From an uncultured Nitrospiraceae bacterium (lineage in GTDB: Bacteria > Nitrospirota > Nitrospiria > Nitrospirales > Nitrospiraceae): a stretch of DNA of 64,000 nucleotides. The stretch spans positions 224,001 to 288,000 of the forward strand of contig CAWJWJ010000002.1 of assembly GCA_963846575.1 (NCBI GenBank). Direction: 5' to 3'. The translations under genes and the position numbers were made by a program. The notes below the pieces were generated by a model. The model saw nothing but the letters and a program-made list of their open reading frames with translations. It was not told the origin of the DNA and searched no databases. Shown here one piece after another: positions 42,824 through 51,401 of this stretch. Position 1 is the stretch's first letter. Each line of letters opens with the position of its first letter.

Positions 42824-43868
42824 CATGGAATTGGCCGGGTGTTCTTTACCGCAGCCTTGGCCGGCCTGTGCAACGGCCGAGGCAGCATACTGTGCAGAGG
42901 TGGGGCCGCGGAGAAGAACGGGACCGATCTGTATGAAACGATCGAGGCATTGGGCTGGTGTTTGGAACAGCTTCAGACGGTGTGTGTCTCGCTGACGACC
43001 CCTCATGGACATTTGTTCGGAGAAGACCAAGTCGATGCCCGCCGCCTCTTTGCAGGCGAGATGCGATGAGGGGATAAGGGAGGCACGACTTGGTTCGTCA
43101 ATGGCCAGGCGTGGCCGGCCTGGCCCCATGGTCTCGCGAACTCGTGTTCTGCAAGGGGAGCTGCTCGGGGAGTGACAGGGACAAGCATAGTACGGCGGAA
43201 GAATCAGCACACAGGCGGCACGGTGATCAGCATGGGCCAGCACCCGTCCTCTCCCCAAGTCGAAGGATAGAATGTTTTGGTCAGATGGTCGACTGACTCT
43301 CCTGAGATTGCCCCCGCCGGCATCTTGCCTGCCGCGCTTCGTGCATGCGCCGAGTTAGCCTCTGCATCTGCAGCTGTCCGAGACTGCGTCCTGCGTCGAT
43401 CTGCAGTGATACCAATTCCGTTTTACTTTCTCCACATGAAGCAGCCCTCGGTAAGAGACTGTGTCACACCTGGAACGATAAGGGGGTGACACAACAATGA
43501 CACGCCGACCCGCGCCAGAAATTTGACGAGTCTTTGAAGCAAGCGCATGGCAGTCGTGGAAAATCCCGCAGAAATGCGATTGTTCAACGGAATCTTGTGC
43601 GGCATGATCCTTGATATCACAAGAGACAATGGTTGGAGCCGAGAGCGGTACGAAGCATCAGATGCGAGCGCAAAGGGAAGTGGAAATTCCATTGTGTGTG
43701 AATTTGCCGATCGCCATGAAGGCCCGAACGTCACGACTCACCGCGAGCACATCTGCGTGAATCTGTGTACCATCCGCCGCCCGGTTGAGGGTCTGAAATC
43801 TCGGTCCCACGTTCGACTCGGAGCTCTCCACGGTGAAGATACATCATTACGAACAAGGAGAACTGATT

Positions 43869-44186
43869 ATGTGGAATGATAAGGTGGATCTGATGCGGTT
43901 TGATCATGAGGCGGGGACAGGGGCACTTCCGGAGAGGGCGGAGGCAGGGAGGGCTGGAGTAACCGCCAAGCGACGACCGGAGGAGTTGACCCCCCGGGAA
44001 CACGAGATCCTGCAATTGGTGTGGGCCGGGTTCACGAATCGCACAATTGCGGAGCAACTGCATATCAGCGTCAAGACGGCGGAGGCACATCGTGCCAATA
44101 TGATGAAAAAACTTCGCGTCTCCAATATCGCGCAACTGCTGAAGACGGCTCTGGAAGAGGGGCTGCTTGCTACCCATGTGAGTTAA
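43869..44186 (+). CDS. Stand-alone LuxR-type HTH protein
   Basis: LTPREHEIL...NRTIAEQLHISVKTAEAHRANMMKKL; ATG 43869 after AAGGAG. Confidence 0.88.
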   Translation: MWNDKVDLMRFDHEAGTGALPERAEAGRAGVTAKRRPEELTPREHEILQLVWAGFTNRTIAEQLHISVKTAEAHRANMMKKLRVSNIAQLLKTALEEGLLATHVS

Positions 44187-44332
44187 CGGGATACGCGGCG
44201 ACCTGCGGCTTCGGGAGAAGTCCCACTCCCGAGGATGGTAGCTCCCCGCGAATCCGCCCTTCTTACAGTACAATTCATCTCGCGCCGGAGATGGTGTTTG
44301 CAGTACAATGCCGCACTATTTCCGGAGCAGCC

Positions 44333-44725
44333 GTGGTCGAACAGCGAATCGAAGAAATTACGCGCGCGAATCTCGCTTTCTATGCCGCTTTTGAAAGTCT
44401 GGACATGCTCCAGATGGACAAAGTGTGGGCTCATCTCGAATATGTGACTTGTATCCATCCGGGCTGGAACCTTCGTAGCGACTGGCCGGCGGTTCGCGAC
44501 TCCTGGGTCTTGATTTTCAACAACACCTTTTCCATGAAATTCGAGCTCACCGACGTCCAGGTCCAGGTCGCTGGCGATCTGGGCTGGGTGATCTGTACGG
44601 AGCATCTCACCAGCCGGCAGGACGACCAGCCGGTCGAAACCCGCGTCCTCGCTACCAATCTATTTGAGCGTATCGGCGATGAGTGGTTGATGATTCACCA
44701 CCATGGAAGCCCGGTGATGGGCTAG
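44333..44725 (+). CDS. SnoaL/NTF2-like protein
   Basis: ANLAFYAAF, CIHPGW, ATNLFER, WLMIHHHGS; GTG 44333 after GGAG. Confidence 0.85.
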   Translation: MVEQRIEEITRANLAFYAAFESLDMLQMDKVWAHLEYVTCIHPGWNLRSDWPAVRDSWVLIFNNTFSMKFELTDVQVQVAGDLGWVICTEHLTSRQDDQPVETRVLATNLFERIGDEWLMIHHHGSPVMG

Positions 44726-45323: not shown

Positions 45324-45956
45324 ATGAACGTTCGACCGATGCTCGCTCACGTGACCGACAAGCCAGTGTTAGGGGCGATGGTGCGATTGTGCCGAGGGGT
45401 GAGGGAGCTGATCGGTCAGATCCATGAAGACTGGACGGTGAACAGCCGGGACTGGACGATGCCCGGCTTTCGCGCCCTTACCGTTCACCGCATAGGTACC
45501 TGGGTTTCCAACAGACGCGGAAGCATCCTGAAGTCGGGCATGCTTCTGCTGTACGGGATGATGTATCGATACGTGCGGAATCACTACGGCGTTGAAATAC
45601 CATTGACGACCACGATAGGACGAAGAATGCTGCTTGTCCATCAACATGGGATCGTGTTCCATTGGAAAGCTGTCGTAGGGGATGACTGTGTGATCCGACA
45701 CAATGCCACGATAGGCGCGGGATACGGGGGAGCCAAAACCCTTCACAAGGGGCCAAAACTTGGAAATCGGGTGGAAGTCGGCCCTGGCGCCGTGATCTTT
45801 GCCGCCGTCAAGATCGGGGATGGGGCGGTGATTGGACCGAATGCCGTGGTCATGTCCGATGTGCCGGCGGGGGCCCGAGTCTTTGCTGAGGCGCCACGTG
45901 TCATTTGCCTGCCTAACCAGACCCAGGGGAAATCAGTTTTAGCTGGGACCAGCTAG
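45324..45956 (+). CDS. Hexapeptide-repeat O-acetyltransferase (CysE/WcaB-like)
   Basis: Left-handed beta-helix: TTIGRR, HQHGIV, VVGDDCVI, KLGNRVEVGPGA, KIGDGAVIGPNAVV, DVP. Confidence 0.88.
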   Translation: MNVRPMLAHVTDKPVLGAMVRLCRGVRELIGQIHEDWTVNSRDWTMPGFRALTVHRIGTWVSNRRGSILKSGMLLLYGMMYRYVRNHYGVEIPLTTTIGRRMLLVHQHGIVFHWKAVVGDDCVIRHNATIGAGYGGAKTLHKGPKLGNRVEVGPGAVIFAAVKIGDGAVIGPNAVVMSDVPAGARVFAEAPRVICLPNQTQGKSVLAGTS

Positions 45957-45996
45957 TCGGAGGATTTCTACAGTTCGACTAGGGAGTTTCCTAGTC

Positions 45997-48051
45997 ATGC
46001 CTGCCTTCCTGCTGAGTCAAATTGTGCACCGCCAGAATGATATGTCGCTTCTCGGAAAAATAGAATCGACCTCGGGCACTTCATCGCCCGCCACTCCGGA
46101 GGTTCGCGGCGATGCCTATCGGAAGTCTGGCCTCATCGCACAGGCGATTCAGGCGTATCTGGAAGGTGTGATCCATCCGGCCCCGGCCGGACTGTGCCTC
46201 AAGCTTGCGCGGAGTTACGAAGAGATTCAGAATTATGCAGAGGCCAGCCGTTGGGCGCTCGCTATTGTCGATTCGGGCGATGATTTTACGGCATGGCAGA
46301 ATGGCTGGTCCCTGTTCCGGCGGGTGGCGTCGAAGGCTAACCGGCCGATAGTTCGGAAGGCCAAAGTCGCGCTTCTCGGCAGCTACACGACCACCCAATT
46401 TGGTGCCATGTTGTGTTTTGCGGCGAGTCGATTCGGCATTGCGGTCGACCTCTATGAAAGCCATTACGGACAGTTTCAGCAGGAGATCATCGATCCCGCG
46501 AGCGGCCTCTATGCCTTCCGGCCCGAGATCGTCCTGCTCGCCGTGCACGAAAAGGATCTCCGACTGCCTGAATACAGCCAGCACCCGGAGGCGGATATCC
46601 GTCAGGAAGTCGGCCGCTGGACAGCGCTGTGGAAAATGGTGGAAGAACGCTCCGGGGCTCGTGTCATACAGCATAACTTCGCCCTGCCTTGCGAGATTCC
46701 TGCCGGCCATCTCGCGACGCGTCTCTCCGGGTCCCGATACATGATGGCACAAGCCGTCAACGCAGGGCTTGGACGAGCGGCGGCAAATTCGGTGTCATTG
46801 GTCGATTGCGAACGGCTGTCCGCGTACATCGGTAAGCAGCGATGGTGCGACCCCCGCTATTGGAACCTCTCCAAACAAGCCGTTGCACTGGAGGCTGTTC
46901 CCTTACTCGCCCGGCACACCGCGGCCGTCATGGCAGCCGCTTTGGGGGCGAGCCGGAAATGTCTCGTGCTCGATCTGGACAACACTCTGTGGGGCGGGGT
47001 TATCGCGGAAGACGGGTTGGCGGGAATTCGATTGGGCAATGGGGTCGAAGGTGAGGCCTTCGTCGCCTTTCAAGAGTATCTTCTTCGGCTCAAGGAAAAG
47101 GGCGTGATCCTGGTAGTCTGCTCGAAGAATAACCATGCCGACGCGATCCAGCCTTTCGAAAAGCATTCCGAAATGCGACTGAAGCTCGGGGATATTGCCC
47201 TGTTTCTTGCCAACTGGGAATCGAAACCCGACAACATCCGCCGGATAGCCAAGACGCTGCAGATCGGGTTGGACTCACTGGTGTTTGTCGATGACAACCC
47301 GGTCGAGCGGGAGATCGTCCGCAAGTTTCTGCCTGAAGTTGACGTGATACCGCTTCCCGAGGACCCGTCCTATTATCTCAGAGCGCTCTCTCAATACCTC
47401 TTACTCGAGACGAGCGCGTTTACGGCCGAGGATAGTCAACGGACCGATCAATATCGAGCCCGGGCTCAGATCTTGGAACTGGAAACGTCCGCCGGGTCCA
47501 TTGAAGACTTTTATCGAGGGCTCCAGATGCAGGCCATCGTGGCTCCTTTCGATGCGGAGCAGTTGCCGCGGATCGCCCAGCTCATCGGGAAGACGAATCA
47601 ATTCAACCTCACGACTCGCCGTCACGGCATGGCGCAACTCGAAGAGTGTATGCAGGATGCGCACTGCGTACATCTCGCCCTGCGGTTGAGGGATCGTTAT
47701 GCAGACCACGGGTTGGTGAGTTTGATGATTGCGCGGCAACAGGGTGCCGTGCTGGATATCGATACGTGGCTCATGAGCTGCCGGGTCATCGGTCGGACCG
47801 TCGAACGGACGATGCTGGCGCACCTCTGCCGGCGGGCCGCGCAGCTCGGCTGTGCCACCCTTCAAGGTACCTATGTCCCGACGGAAAAGAATGCGATGGC
47901 CGCAGACGCCTATGCGAAGTGCGGATTTGAGCTGCTCCATCGGAATGACGGCCACGAGATCTGGACCTACGATCTTCCTTCCAAGGGCATGCTCACGAAT
48001 GAGTTCGTGAAATCGGTCCAGTCCTGGGAATTCGCTGATGGCGCCGGCTGA
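45997..48051 (+). CDS. FkbH-like HAD-IIIC glyceryl transferase/phosphatase with N-terminal extension
   Basis: DLDNTLWGG, CSKNN, NWESK, FVDDNPVER, KTNQFN, LMSCRVIGR. Confidence 0.93.
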   Translation: MPAFLLSQIVHRQNDMSLLGKIESTSGTSSPATPEVRGDAYRKSGLIAQAIQAYLEGVIHPAPAGLCLKLARSYEEIQNYAEASRWALAIVDSGDDFTAWQNGWSLFRRVASKANRPIVRKAKVALLGSYTTTQFGAMLCFAASRFGIAVDLYESHYGQFQQEIIDPASGLYAFRPEIVLLAVHEKDLRLPEYSQHPEADIRQEVGRWTALWKMVEERSGARVIQHNFALPCEIPAGHLATRLSGSRYMMAQAVNAGLGRAAANSVSLVDCERLSAYIGKQRWCDPRYWNLSKQAVALEAVPLLARHTAAVMAAALGASRKCLVLDLDNTLWGGVIAEDGLAGIRLGNGVEGEAFVAFQEYLLRLKEKGVILVVCSKNNHADAIQPFEKHSEMRLKLGDIALFLANWESKPDNIRRIAKTLQIGLDSLVFVDDNPVEREIVRKFLPEVDVIPLPEDPSYYLRALSQYLLLETSAFTAEDSQRTDQYRARAQILELETSAGSIEDFYRGLQMQAIVAPFDAEQLPRIAQLIGKTNQFNLTTRRHGMAQLEECMQDAHCVHLALRLRDRYADHGLVSLMIARQQGAVLDIDTWLMSCRVIGRTVERTMLAHLCRRAAQLGCATLQGTYVPTEKNAMAADAYAKCGFELLHRNDGHEIWTYDLPSKGMLTNEFVKSVQSWEFADGAG

Positions 48052-49573
48052 TCCCTCCTCTCCCCCGCAAGAACCGCCCACGGTGTGTTTCACGACTCAG
48101 GACCTGACGCTGTTCAGTGCAGCCAGCCACGACACGAATCCTCTGCATGTCTCTCAGGAATACGCGCGGGCCACGCCCTACGGGGAGCCCGTGGTGTTTG
48201 GGGTGCTCGGTGGCTTGGCTGCACTTGGGCATCTTCCGGAACGCGAAGACCAGGTTCTGCACAATCTCTCGCTGGAGTTTCGCAACCCCCTCACCGTCGG
48301 AGTACCGTACCGCCTGGAAGTCAGCGAGCCGATGGCCACGCAGGCACTCGTAAAACTCTACGACGCGGGTCGATTGATGATAAAGGCGACTTTTATCTTT
48401 ATGCCTAGGCCAGCGGGCGTGGATTCATCAATGGTCTCCGCTGTGCCTGGTCCTCTGGAAGCGGCGGATCGGACGAGGGACAGCTTTATTGCGGGGGACC
48501 ACCTGTCCGGCACCTACGGCCCATCCCGTGCTGAGTTGGAACAGGTGGTTGAGCGTTGGGGGCTATCCGCCAAGGGAGCGACATCGGTCCACATTGCAGC
48601 GATGATGTGGGCAAGTTTCATCGTCGGTATGGAGCTTCCTGGGAAACGGGCGATTTTCTGGCGGCTGGTACTCGATTTTGAGCCAGCAGAGGGGCCTCGA
48701 CAGGGGCCGCTCTCCTATGATGTCACGATAGATAATTTCGACGAGCGGTTCGATCTTCTCCACACCACGGGGAATCTTTCATGCGGCACCAGCCCCTGTG
48801 CGACGGCTCGGATGTGGGCCTTCGTGCGAAAGGACTCTCCGCGCTCCTCTCTTCAACAGATTACGGATCTTCTGCCATGCTCCGAACAGCTCAAAGGGAA
48901 GGTTGCGTTGGTGATCGGAGGCAGTCGGGGACTGGGCGCCGCGATCACCCTGGCATTGGTGTCACAGGGCTGTTCCGTGCTGATGAATTTCCGTCACTCC
49001 CGGTCTGAGGCCGAGCGGCTTGTGGCGAGTCTGGCGGGAGCATCCGGCCTCATCGAGCTGGTGCAGGGTGATGCGGCTGATGTTGAATGGTGCCGGGCGG
49101 TCCAGCGGAATATCCTGGACCGGTACGGCAGGCTTGATGTGCTGGTGTGCAACGCCTCACCGCCCATCCGTCCGCTGCCCTTCGTGCCGGAGAAGGCCAT
49201 CCAGTTTCAACAGTTCCTTCTCGACAGCGTCGCGTTGATCAGTCTCCCGATGTCGTGTTTTCTCGATTCATTGTCTGAACGTTCCGGATGGAATGTTGTG
49301 GTATCTTCGGCGTTCGTCAAGGATCTTCCAGAGGACTGGCCGCACTATGTCACTGCCAAATGCGCTGTTGAGGGATTGGTGCAATGGGCCGCGCTGCATT
49401 ACCCCAAGGTTCACGGTCTTCTAGTCAGGCCTCCGAAATTGCTAACCGATCAGACCAATACGACGCTGGGCAGACAGGGGGCCATGCGTGTTGAGCAAGT
49501 GGCCGCTGCCGTAGTCGGGCAGCTCTGTCATGCCGCGTCGTCACAGACGGTGCGGATATTGGAAGATTTTTAA
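48038..49573 (+). CDS. MaoC-like dehydratase fused to an SDR reductase
   Basis: N-terminal hydratase motif SHDTNPLH, second hot-dog-like region, then GGSRGLG, NAS, YVTAK (YxxxK); overlaps the fkbH stop. Confidence 0.85.
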   Translation: MAPADPSSPPQEPPTVCFTTQDLTLFSAASHDTNPLHVSQEYARATPYGEPVVFGVLGGLAALGHLPEREDQVLHNLSLEFRNPLTVGVPYRLEVSEPMATQALVKLYDAGRLMIKATFIFMPRPAGVDSSMVSAVPGPLEAADRTRDSFIAGDHLSGTYGPSRAELEQVVERWGLSAKGATSVHIAAMMWASFIVGMELPGKRAIFWRLVLDFEPAEGPRQGPLSYDVTIDNFDERFDLLHTTGNLSCGTSPCATARMWAFVRKDSPRSSLQQITDLLPCSEQLKGKVALVIGGSRGLGAAITLALVSQGCSVLMNFRHSRSEAERLVASLAGASGLIELVQGDAADVEWCRAVQRNILDRYGRLDVLVCNASPPIRPLPFVPEKAIQFQQFLLDSVALISLPMSCFLDSLSERSGWNVVVSSAFVKDLPEDWPHYVTAKCAVEGLVQWAALHYPKVHGLLVRPPKLLTDQTNTTLGRQGAMRVEQVAAAVVGQLCHAASSQTVRILEDF

Positions 49574-49777
49574 CAAGGAGTACGACTTGGCATCTCGCGG
49601 TCGCTCATGACTGATGCGATGCCAGGTGTGGCGGTTGGGCACAGGGTGTGTCGAGAGGGAAATCACCCGGGGGGGCGTCATCTCTCGAGGTCTTTGCACG
49701 ATATATGGTGGGCGTAGCGGCTTGACCGCATGCTACGACGATCGTACATTCATACCGACGCAGCTAGGAGCATACAC

Positions 49778-50014
49778 ATGGAGTTGCACGAACGACTGGA
49801 AGAGGTGTTTCGCCAAGTGTTCGACAATGAAAACCTCACGCTGACGGATGAGATGATGGCCACGGACATACAAGGCTGGGACTCCGTGGCACACATTAAT
49901 CTCATGTTTGGCATCGAACAGGCATTTCGAGTCCGATTCAAGGGCAACGAACTGGCTGACATGAAGAACATCGGCGAATTGAAGCGGTTCCTGGCCGGCA
50001 ATGGGAAACATTAA
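49778..50014 (+). CDS. Acyl carrier protein
   Basis: 78 aa, acidic, GWDS36 phosphopantetheine site; ATG after AGGAG. Confidence 0.92.
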   Translation: MELHERLEEVFRQVFDNENLTLTDEMMATDIQGWDSVAHINLMFGIEQAFRVRFKGNELADMKNIGELKRFLAGNGKH

Positions 50015-50123
50015 CTGCCGAACTGCGGAGCGTGCAGGGCAGAATCGGATGGTATGTTCCGCCCCTCGATCGCGGCTGCCGTTATTGGGGAGGGCGGAGC
50101 GAACCTTCGCCGATCTAATCTGA

Positions 50124-51401
50124 ATGGGTGACATTGCGATCCACGTTGACAGCTTGCATAAACTCTATCGTCTGGGAGCCATGCATGCTCAGGACGGGTC
50201 CTTGGCCAGCGTGCTCTCGCGTGGACTCCGCCGGTTGACAGGACGGCGGGCCGGCGGCGCCACGGGGGCTACAGAGGCCATCTGGGCCTTGCGCGACGTC
50301 TCCTTCGAGATCAAGCGGGGTGAAGTGTTCGGAGTTATCGGCACCAATGGCTCGGGGAAAAGTACGCTCCTTAAAATCCTCTCCCGGGTGACGGAACCCA
50401 CGAAGGGGCGGGCGGTCATCCATGGGCGCTTTTGCGGCCTCCTGGAAGTGGGGACGGGGTTCCATCCGGAATTGACCGGCCGCGATAACGTGTACATGAG
50501 CGGCGCCATTTTGGGGATGAAACGGCAGGAAATTACCAGGAAATTCGACGAGATCGTGGCCTTTGCCGAAGTGGAACAGTTTATCGATACGCCGGTGAAA
50601 CACTATTCCAGCGGGATGTATGTCCGACTGGGGTTTTCGGTCCTGGCCCATATGGATCCGGACATTCTCATCGTCGATGAGGTGTTGGCGGTGGGAGACG
50701 TGCGCTTTCAAAAAAAGTGTATGGGCAAGATGGAGGATGTGGGACAGCATGGGCGGACGGTGATCCTTGTGTCTCACGACATGCCGGCGATTACCCGGAT
50801 GTGCAAACGGGCGATTCTGCTCAACAAGGGGGAGATCGTGCAGGCGGGGGCGGCGCACGATGTCGTTCGGCACTATCTCCAGGCGGGTCATATCCAGCCC
50901 TCTGTCGGATGGCCGGATCTCACCCAAGCACCGGGGAATGAGGTCGTGCGCTTGCGGGCCGTACGGGTTCAGACCGAATCCGGATCGGTTATGGATCGAT
51001 TTGACATCCGACGGCCGATCGAACTCGAGGTAGAGTTCGATGTTATAAAACCCGGACATGTCTTCGTCCCGGTGTTTAATCTGCATAGCGAGGAAGATCA
51101 GGTTATCTTCATCGCGCATGATCGCGATCCGGCATGGCAACGCACTCCACGCCCCATGGGTCGGTATGTGTCTTCTGCTTGTGTGCCGGGAAACCTGCTC
51201 GCTGAAGGCATCGTGACAGTCGCAGCCCTCATAATGACCGAGAGTCCGTTTCGGATGCATGCCCACGTTCCGCGCGTGATTGGCTTCCGGGTGGATGATC
51301 CCGGCGTGGGAGACTCGGCACGCGGGGACTTCCACGGTCGATGGCCTGGGGTCGTGCGCCCCTTATTGAAGTGGCGGACAAGGTTCTCGCCCGCGGATTA
51401 A
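50124..51401 (+). CDS. wzt: Polysaccharide ABC exporter ATP-binding subunit with C-terminal Wzt_C-like domain
   Basis: GTNGSGKST, GFHPELTGRDN, YSSGMYVRL, VDEVLAVGD..FQKKC, beta-rich C-terminal domain. Confidence 0.9.
   Translation: MGDIAIHVDSLHKLYRLGAMHAQDGSLASVLSRGLRRLTGRRAGGATGATEAIWALRDVSFEIKRGEVFGVIGTNGSGKSTLLKILSRVTEPTKGRAVIHGRFCGLLEVGTGFHPELTGRDNVYMSGAILGMKRQEITRKFDEIVAFAEVEQFIDTPVKHYSSGMYVRLGFSVLAHMDPDILIVDEVLAVGDVRFQKKCMGKMEDVGQHGRTVILVSHDMPAITRMCKRAILLNKGEIVQAGAAHDVVRHYLQAGHIQPSVGWPDLTQAPGNEVVRLRAVRVQTESGSVMDRFDIRRPIELEVEFDVIKPGHVFVPVFNLHSEEDQVIFIAHDRDPAWQRTPRPMGRYVSSACVPGNLLAEGIVTVAALIMTESPFRMHAHVPRVIGFRVDDPGVGDSARGDFHGRWPGVVRPLLKWRTRFSPAD

Follow-up and report, generated by a model that had tools for sequence, protein, structure and literature searches.

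The window analysed here, 64 kb from an uncultured Nitrospiraceae bacterium (G000:C2:224001-288000, G000 being the source genome), carries a cassette encoding a hexapeptide acyltransferase, an FkbH-type glyceryl loader, a dehydratase-ketoreductase (DH-KR) didomain, an acyl carrier protein (ACP) and the exporter ATPase Wzt (table 1). The five open reading frames (ORFs), their placement on a single strand, the 14-nt overlap of the MaoC-SDR (short-chain dehydrogenase/reductase) ORF with the FkbH ORF and the motifs listed in the initial annotation were all confirmed by ORF, profile and motif checks. Comparison with related genomes makes it probable, as an explanation of the whole, that the cassette represents a tailoring-and-export module detached from the main XrtA/PEP-CTERM-type polysaccharide cluster of its genus.

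Table 1. Positions of the cassette features in the window and of two DH-KR loci in other bacteria.
Feature	Position	Strand	Support
Hexapeptide acyltransferase (left-handed beta-helix, CysE/WcaB-like type)	45324..45956	+	PF00132, E 7.6e-11
FkbH glyceryl-ACP loader with FkbH_N domain	45997..48051	+	TIGR01686, PF21211
DH-KR didomain (MaoC-type dehydratase and SDR reductase, lactyl-starter family)	48038..49573	+	PF01575, PF00106
Dedicated ACP, Ser36 in GWDS	49778..50014	+	ACP-model matches weak, under cut-off
wzm 3' end remnant, in frame, stop just ahead of wzt start	50089..50123	+	matches end of cluster wzm
Wzt, whole ORF	50124..51401	+	Walker A, signature, Walker B and H-loop intact
Wzt ATPase half	50124..50953	+	near-identical to main-cluster wzt
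Divergent part of Wzt C-terminal carbohydrate-binding domain, cassette class	50954..51401	+	56% DNA identity to cluster copy
DH-KR loci of Streptomyces atratus plasmids and Amycolatopsis	L179:14968-16464, L001:10025-11476		

The start of the ACP was placed at Met 49778, giving a protein of 78 aa, because all 27 aligned copies start there; the WDS motif and Ser36 are invariant in the same 27. The start of FkbH may lie 10-30 codons inward of the ORF start, orthologue alignments beginning at residues 7-37. The flanks of the cassette in the window are housekeeping genes, and neither a wzm gene beyond the 35-nt remnant nor a glycosyltransferase (GT) gene was found beside it, so that the window alone supports a glycan role weakly. 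No ketosynthase or non-ribosomal peptide synthetase (NRPS) was detected in the window by tblastn with four polyketide synthase (PKS)/NRPS queries, whose matches there were the DH-KR and FkbH genes only; this agrees with the earlier reading, and NRPS/PKS clusters are present elsewhere in G000 (C2 1,089-1,097 kb and 1,205-1,253 kb). Promoter and terminator scans gave signals near chance, and no tRNA was found in the window.

Of 151 genomes searched, 28 contained DH-KR, G000 among them (26/38 in the genus and 1/2 in another genus), and 20-kb stretches were taken for 20 of the 30 matches, longer contigs being preferred. The order hexapeptide-FkbH-DH-KR-ACP recurred in all 20 stretches and wzt came next in 19 (12 whole, 7 cut by a contig end inside the ATPase part); the gene order is therefore non-random. 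The neighbourhoods occupied on the chromosome differ among relatives. All parts are under purifying selection, with ratios of non-synonymous to synonymous substitution rates (dN/dS) of 0.03-0.30 in five pairs; values were highest in the DH (0.18-0.30) and were 0.06-0.22 in the cassette-class carbohydrate-binding domain (CBD) of Wzt. The closed genome G004 has the polysaccharide cluster and lacks the FkbH orthologue, DH-KR and cassette-class CBD, and G028 has lost the cassette and retains a frameshifted CBD remnant. Two cassette copies were present in G006 (C89 and C101) and a second, split FkbH gene in G034 (C19). In G029 (L044) every gene of the cassette is frameshifted; this genome was excluded, as was G009, which is probably misjoined at the repeat.

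Probable formation of lactyl-ACP

FkbH scored 291.7 bits against TIGR01686 (cut-off 146.65), contains DLDNT at 326 and SCR at 594, and is encoded once in G000; a cognate ACP gene lies beside it in 20/20 of the stretches from relatives. Loading of glycerate is established for this family. FkbH is described as a maker of glyceryl-ACP (PMC7489565) and FkbH loading modules are tabulated as yielding lactate-ACP (PMC7901079). By this chemistry, the cassette FkbH would load glycerate from 1,3-bisphosphoglycerate onto the ACP, the DH would dehydrate glyceryl-ACP to pyruvyl-ACP and the KR would reduce pyruvyl-ACP to lactyl-ACP. The same series was reportedly reconstituted in vitro by He et al. (2014) for FR901464 and lankacidin.

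The DH-KR contains DTNPLH at 32, GGSRGLG at 294, S423 and YVTAK at 437, and D32, H37, S423, Y437 and K441 are invariant in 37/37 sequences. It aligns over 468-505 residues, at 29-38% identity, with N-terminal PKS didomains and a free-standing plasmid enzyme: 38% (E 7e-82) for the latter, on Streptomyces griseofuscus plasmid pSGRIFU1 next to genes for an ACP, an FkbH-type phosphatase and a PKS, and 34% (E 3e-64), 35% and 29% for the PKS N-termini of Burkholderia sp. FERM BP-3421, a metagenome contig and Ensifer, respectively. The FkbH core is 34% identical to the Burkholderia plasmid PKS. Among 141 new matches of a profile search, the 11 proteins longer than 700 aa all had DH-KR followed by FkbH. 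In a tree (FastTree supports only), the window DH-KR nests among PKS-type DH-KR, apart from another MaoC-SDR fusion type. With the single DH-KR protein as query, one locus was obtained from GTDB contigs, and an alignment scan of metagenomes was dominated by generic SDRs, the whole didomain being covered in 3/80 loci. Since the DH-KR is a full-length homologue of the DH-KR pairs of PKS loading modules, lactyl-ACP chemistry is likely, and we consider it very probable that the cassette enzymes form lactyl-ACP. The lactyl- or glyceryl-ACP route put forward initially is thus supported by homology, by the invariant residues and by the tree.

The trans-acyltransferase (trans-AT) PKS modules of the DH-KR-FkbH-ACP type, as on the Burkholderia plasmid, share with the cassette the full-length DH-KR, the FkbH core and the catalytic residues; FR901464/spliceostatin, bryostatin and tartrolon are names we take to belong to such lactyl-starter modules. 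Unlike in these, the cassette parts are separate genes, no ketosynthase is next to them and their partners are a hexapeptide transferase and Wzt. Discrete DH-KR, ACP and FkbH genes lie within four genes on pSGRIFU1 also, at what is presumably the lankacidin cluster, but there they flank a PKS and a pyrroloquinoline quinone (PQQ) dehydrogenase, whereas the cassette would serve a glycan cluster. The initial annotation is corrected in one respect, in that free-standing DH-KR enzymes had been known before from polyketide clusters. Further free-standing DH-KR genes were seen among deoxysugar and NRPS genes on S. atratus plasmids and divergent from an NRPS gene in Amycolatopsis; these loci are candidates for lactyl-bearing natural products.

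The individual parts are known already. What the cassette offers is a small soluble set of four enzymes that could be rebuilt in vitro, with natural versions for lactyl (DH-KR present) and glyceryl (DH-KR lost).

The main polysaccharide cluster and the proposed transfer step

In G000, the main polysaccharide cluster lies at C2 2,165-2,213 kb. It encodes Wza, Wzc, an initiating transferase, Wzm-Wzt, nucleotide-sugar enzymes, a C-methyltransferase, several GTs, a DegT aminotransferase and a ligase-like protein, as well as a FemAB-like protein, two SGNH proteins and an amidotransferase, and three XrtA/PEP-CTERM models exceed their cut-offs in it. A family-wide search for FkbH gave orthologues at 67-70% in 5/121 genomes of a sister genus. 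Over the 20 kb mapped in each of G207, G228 and G237, hexapeptide-FkbH-ACP lies directly 3' of a pair of GINT1-like and GT4 genes, with DH-KR within the cassette in G207 only, and is followed by genes of the GT2, amidotransferase and GT4 kinds; the same GT2 gene is downstream at two shorter loci, those of G335 and G330. The best G000 matches of the sister-genus GINT1-like and GT4 genes are C2:2193303 and C2:2192104. In the closed genome G228, the cluster is syntenic with C2 2,165-2,213 kb of G000, from wza via wzm-wzt to the FemAB and ligase genes. On account of this synteny and the shared transporter, the acceptor of the acyl group is very likely to be the glycan product of the main cluster (C2 2,165-2,213 kb). 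The glycan destination proposed initially is thereby borne out by evidence from outside the window, namely the cassette inside the cluster in the sister genus and the synteny of G228. Lactyl and glyceryl groups both occur on bacterial glycans, and the flocs and biofilms of the host group are relevant to nitrification.

More distant FkbH genes (29-40%) in other Nitrospiraceae (L219-L228) also adjoin glycan genes. Those loci have membrane-bound O-acyltransferase (MBOAT) genes in G057, G265 and G011; the partners include MaoC, methyltransferase, hexapeptide and DegT genes in G057 and another MaoC-SDR fusion in G070. The Campylobacter FkbH gene cj1302 is located in a flagellar glycan locus (PMC7099621). 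A literature search on FkbH-fed acylation of glycans gave nothing beyond this mention of cj1302, most subscription papers lying outside the search.

The hexapeptide protein scored below the curated cut-offs for serine O-acetyltransferase CysE (79.3 versus 210.65), EpsC (80.4 versus 150) and WcaB (66.9 versus 196), and a separate gene of G000 is closer to CysE (C2:2263584-2264246). Its His106 aligns with the histidine of the CysE DHxxG motif and is invariant in 26/26 sequences. Two relatives (P0405 and P0406) combine a hexapeptide domain, FkbH (229 and 232 bits) and a WDS-type ACP in one chain, in the order of the operon; others are fused to an ACP (P0372) or to the N-terminal part of FkbH (P0396), and single relatives are fused to WecG, a flippase, an exosortase (P0386) or Wzm (P0404). 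As relatives are fused to FkbH and ACP together, to ACP alone and to GTs, the hexapeptide enzyme is the best candidate for the final transferase, a choice we regard as likely from these protein architectures. On the cytoplasmic side, it would pass lactyl from the ACP on to a hydroxyl or amine of a sugar. The fusions favour it as a user of acyl-ACP, and plain acetylation stays compatible with them. Between the hexapeptide enzyme and an unlinked MBOAT, left side by side at first, the fusions thus tilt the choice to the former; a search for MBOAT (PF03062) gave no match in the G000 genome (99.9% complete), the control search being positive in 3/14.

Transfer of ACP-carried acyl groups to a sugar or polymer is familiar from LpxA/LpxD, Dlt and the tetronate genes of Vibrio cholerae O1, and LpxA and LpxD are left-handed beta-helix enzymes able to use acyl-ACP. 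The cassette differs from these systems in having a CysE/WcaB-like transferase and a C3 acyl group from glycolysis, with no MBOAT or adenylation enzyme; it is a candidate for a new donor use among CysE-like enzymes.

It is also conceivable, with a rather low probability, that lactyl-ACP is made for the glycan while the hexapeptide protein is an acetyl-CoA-dependent acetyltransferase, the transfer falling to a FemAB/GNAT-like, SGNH-like or asparagine-synthase-like enzyme of the cluster. CysE, EpsC and WcaB are the closest named families of the hexapeptide protein, most of its 27 longer relatives are fused to GT2 without an ACP, which fits an ordinary acetyltransferase equally, and the FemAB-like protein, the two SGNH proteins and the amidotransferase are at hand in the cluster as other candidates. 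However, the hexapeptide gene is first in the cassette in 20/20 stretches and in the sister genus, three-domain hexapeptide-FkbH-ACP fusions exist, and G018 and G014 retain the cassette without the SGNH block of the cluster. Transfer by the hexapeptide enzyme is the preferred reading.

The group delivered in G000 could, with lower probability again, be glyceryl or pyruvyl, with DH-KR as an optional branch. The cassette occurs without intact DH-KR in G001, G007 and G017, as it does in 4/5 of the sister-genus genomes, and the DH is the part with the highest dN/dS. Yet the catalytic residues of both DH and KR are invariant, DH-KR is retained in more than two thirds of the genomes of the genus (26/38), and the decayed DH remnants in G007 and G017 indicate secondary loss of DH-KR there. 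With lactyl as the preferred product in G000, lineages without DH-KR would attach glyceryl instead.

Twin wzt genes

The main cluster of G000 contains a second wzt gene (C2:2203399-2204673, minus strand). The initial annotation was correct in placing Wzt beside the cassette and missed this partly homogenised twin. The two genes are identical over their first 476 nt, and the proteins over residues 1-261; identity is 88-100% per 60-nt bin to nt 840 and approximately 56% thereafter. In the eight genomes with both copies whole, within-genome DNA identity of the ATPase part (nt 151-780) was 98.4, 99.5, 97.9, 100, 99.2, 99.5, 97.8 and 92.9%, that is, 97.8-100% in seven of the eight, compared with 80-97% from one genome to another. 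In the same eight genomes, the C-terminal parts of the two copies agree at only 55.7-61.8% and group according to locus. There are thus two old classes of CBD, and the ATPase halves evolve in concert up to a fixed limit at about nt 800-840.

An assembly artefact was rejected as the source of this identity, since six more genomes show the pattern, each in a sequence particular to that genome, the two copies in G000 are 1.6% different over nt 151-780, and seven other assemblies break inside the repeat. Contigs from two low-share DNA sequencing runs were short and none spanned the wzt repeat; no RNA run containing this organism was listed. Dependence of homogenisation on a single shared wzm was likewise unsupported, as G001 and G007 possess a wzm of their own in the cassette, and this gene too is homogenised (99% and 100%). 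A full wzm is present in the cassette of seven relatives, and only its last 35 nt remain in G000; the remnant also lies directly before wzt in G038, G031 and G020 and further upstream in G015, and is absent in 5/10 genomes examined. In G018 and G014 the cluster has no wzm-wzt and no GINT1/GT4/SGNH block, and the cassette carries both wzm and wzt. The cluster-class CBD was found in 21/39 genomes and the GINT1-like gene in 23/39, with both in 20; the genomes being kin and not independent, this is a pattern and no test.

A predicted model of the cassette CBD had a pLDDT of 88 when based on an alignment and 32 when based on the single sequence. Its best fold matches were the Wzt CBDs 6o14, 8dl0, 2r5o and 5hno (Foldseek E 6e-7; VIA Z 13.4, root-mean-square deviation 2.5, 122 aligned). 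No match at the sequence level to a CBD of Pfam or PDB was obtained, and a profile search of PDB sequences yielded no Wzt. An ATPase with a C-terminal beta-sandwich CBD is also the arrangement of cap-recognising Wzm-Wzt O-antigen exporters (Aquifex aeolicus, Escherichia coli O9a and O12 type), in which, in the systems studied, the CBD recognises the chain cap; the caps given in the accessible part of that source are methyl, phospho-methyl and Kdo, none of them an ACP-derived acyl group (PMC9445017). Unlike these exporters, one genome here keeps two Wzt proteins with a homogenised ATPase and different CBDs. Alleles of the Pseudomonas syringae TET operon similarly have a conserved wzm with wzt and chain-terminating genes varying as a block (PMC7820976), but those alleles swap between strains at one locus, whereas here two loci on one chromosome are partly homogenised. 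The literature search, within the coverage given above, found no account of wzt gene conversion or of a twin exporter.

The cassette Wzt would share Wzm with the cluster Wzt, and recombination would keep the ATPase halves alike. The cassette CBD would then recognise a chain end other than that read by the cluster CBD, in the simplest case the acylated end, and the acyl group might well be the cap that this domain reads, at a probability we set a little short of even. A fuller scheme is more tentative and on balance doubtful: export with two caps, lactyl and the product of the GINT1-like/GT4 block, one Wzt for each and a shared Wzm, with gene conversion of the ATPase halves, selection separating the CBDs and inverted repeats that could act as a switch. 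The twin Wzt proteins form a natural pair, one motor with two recognition domains, that would test the acyl group as an export cap.

Taken alone as an inversion switch, in which recombination swaps CBD and downstream genes between promoters and so produces phase variation of the glycan, the twin genes are less readily explained, and we regard this as improbable. The two copies are inverted in 5/5 genomes with both on one contig, identical runs extend to 215-722 nt in seven genomes, and G027 has a recombinant join of cluster wzm and ATPase with the cassette CBD. Against this, the join is parental in 8/8 genomes with both copies whole, long repeats are also expected to be more stable when inverted, the G027 assembly consists of 40 contigs and may contain a misjoin, and a flip in G000 would cover 1.93 Mb and unbalance the replichores. 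The G027 join (L231:2912-14199, C34) connects the cluster front and wzm to the cassette-class CBD and its flank, and no further part of the cluster was found in that genome.

A third, intermediate CBD with the same ATPase type was seen at L201:13908-15179 (G026:C9) and L202:1828-3099 (G005:C28). It is 63-68% alike to the cassette class and has different adjoining glycan genes, with an integrase-like island as a neighbour in G026. At least five further wzt genes are present in G000 (C2 1,976, 2,631, 2,868 and 2,882 kb; C1 1,054 kb); they are 46-53% identical, and none shares the homogenised DNA (68-74%).

Natural-product clusters and points against a glycan module

Supply of lactyl-ACP in trans as a starter for an NRPS or PKS encoded at another place in the genome is very improbable: distant DH-KR homologues do feed PKS/NRPS and condensation domains occur in 39/39 genomes of the genus, but the conserved NRPS has its own start of the fatty-acyl-activating AMP-binding type with a carrier, a thioesterase end and its own exporter and phosphopantetheinyl transferase, and therefore needs no outside starter, the large NRPS/PKS cluster starts likewise and is patchily distributed, and the cassette was never found adjoining either cluster and in the sister genus is embedded in the glycan cluster. 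The conserved NRPS (G000:C2:1088554-1097925, L242:8554-17925; 3,123 aa, two modules) comprises a DIP2-like AMP-binding start, which we take to be a fatty-acyl-AMP ligase, three carriers, two condensation domains and a thioesterase, and a protein of similar length recurs across the genus. The large cluster (G000:C2:1205000-1253000, L183) stands beside ORFs that resemble, on inspection of their sequences, TonB receptors, FecR and extracytoplasmic function (ECF) sigma factors, and probably makes a siderophore; at least 12 condensation domains were counted in about 17/39 genomes.

Several observations weigh against the cassette as a module of the main polysaccharide cluster. It occurs in just 5 of the 121 sister-genus genomes, with DH-KR in one of those five. 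Besides Wzm-Wzt, the cluster encodes Wza/Wzc and a ligase/polymerase-like protein, which makes the identity of the glycan carried by Wzm-Wzt ambiguous. G026 carries the cassette-class CBD and no FkbH orthologue; in G038 (96% complete), wzm is missing from the cassette and the marker genes of the cluster were not found; G030, at 92.9%, shows no homogenisation of the ATPase halves. The GT2 fusions of the hexapeptide relatives count on the same side. Finally, a PKS/NRPS cluster surrounds 9/9 distinct DH-KR loci inspected outside the Nitrospiraceae (L001, L052, H1-H6 and the region of H3), a set drawn apart from the closer homologues (43-54%) of cyanobacteria and Chloroflexota. An association of homologues with PKS/NRPS genes, which had been named as evidence against a glycan role, was thus found for distant homologues, whereas the DH-KR of the window adjoins no PKS/NRPS and its orthologues have glycan or housekeeping genes as neighbours.

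Just upstream of the cassette and on the same strand, the window contains genes for a LuxR-type regulator and a SnoaL-like protein (43833-44725), and similar LuxR-type/SnoaL-like genes flank the cassette in G038, G049, G001 and G007.

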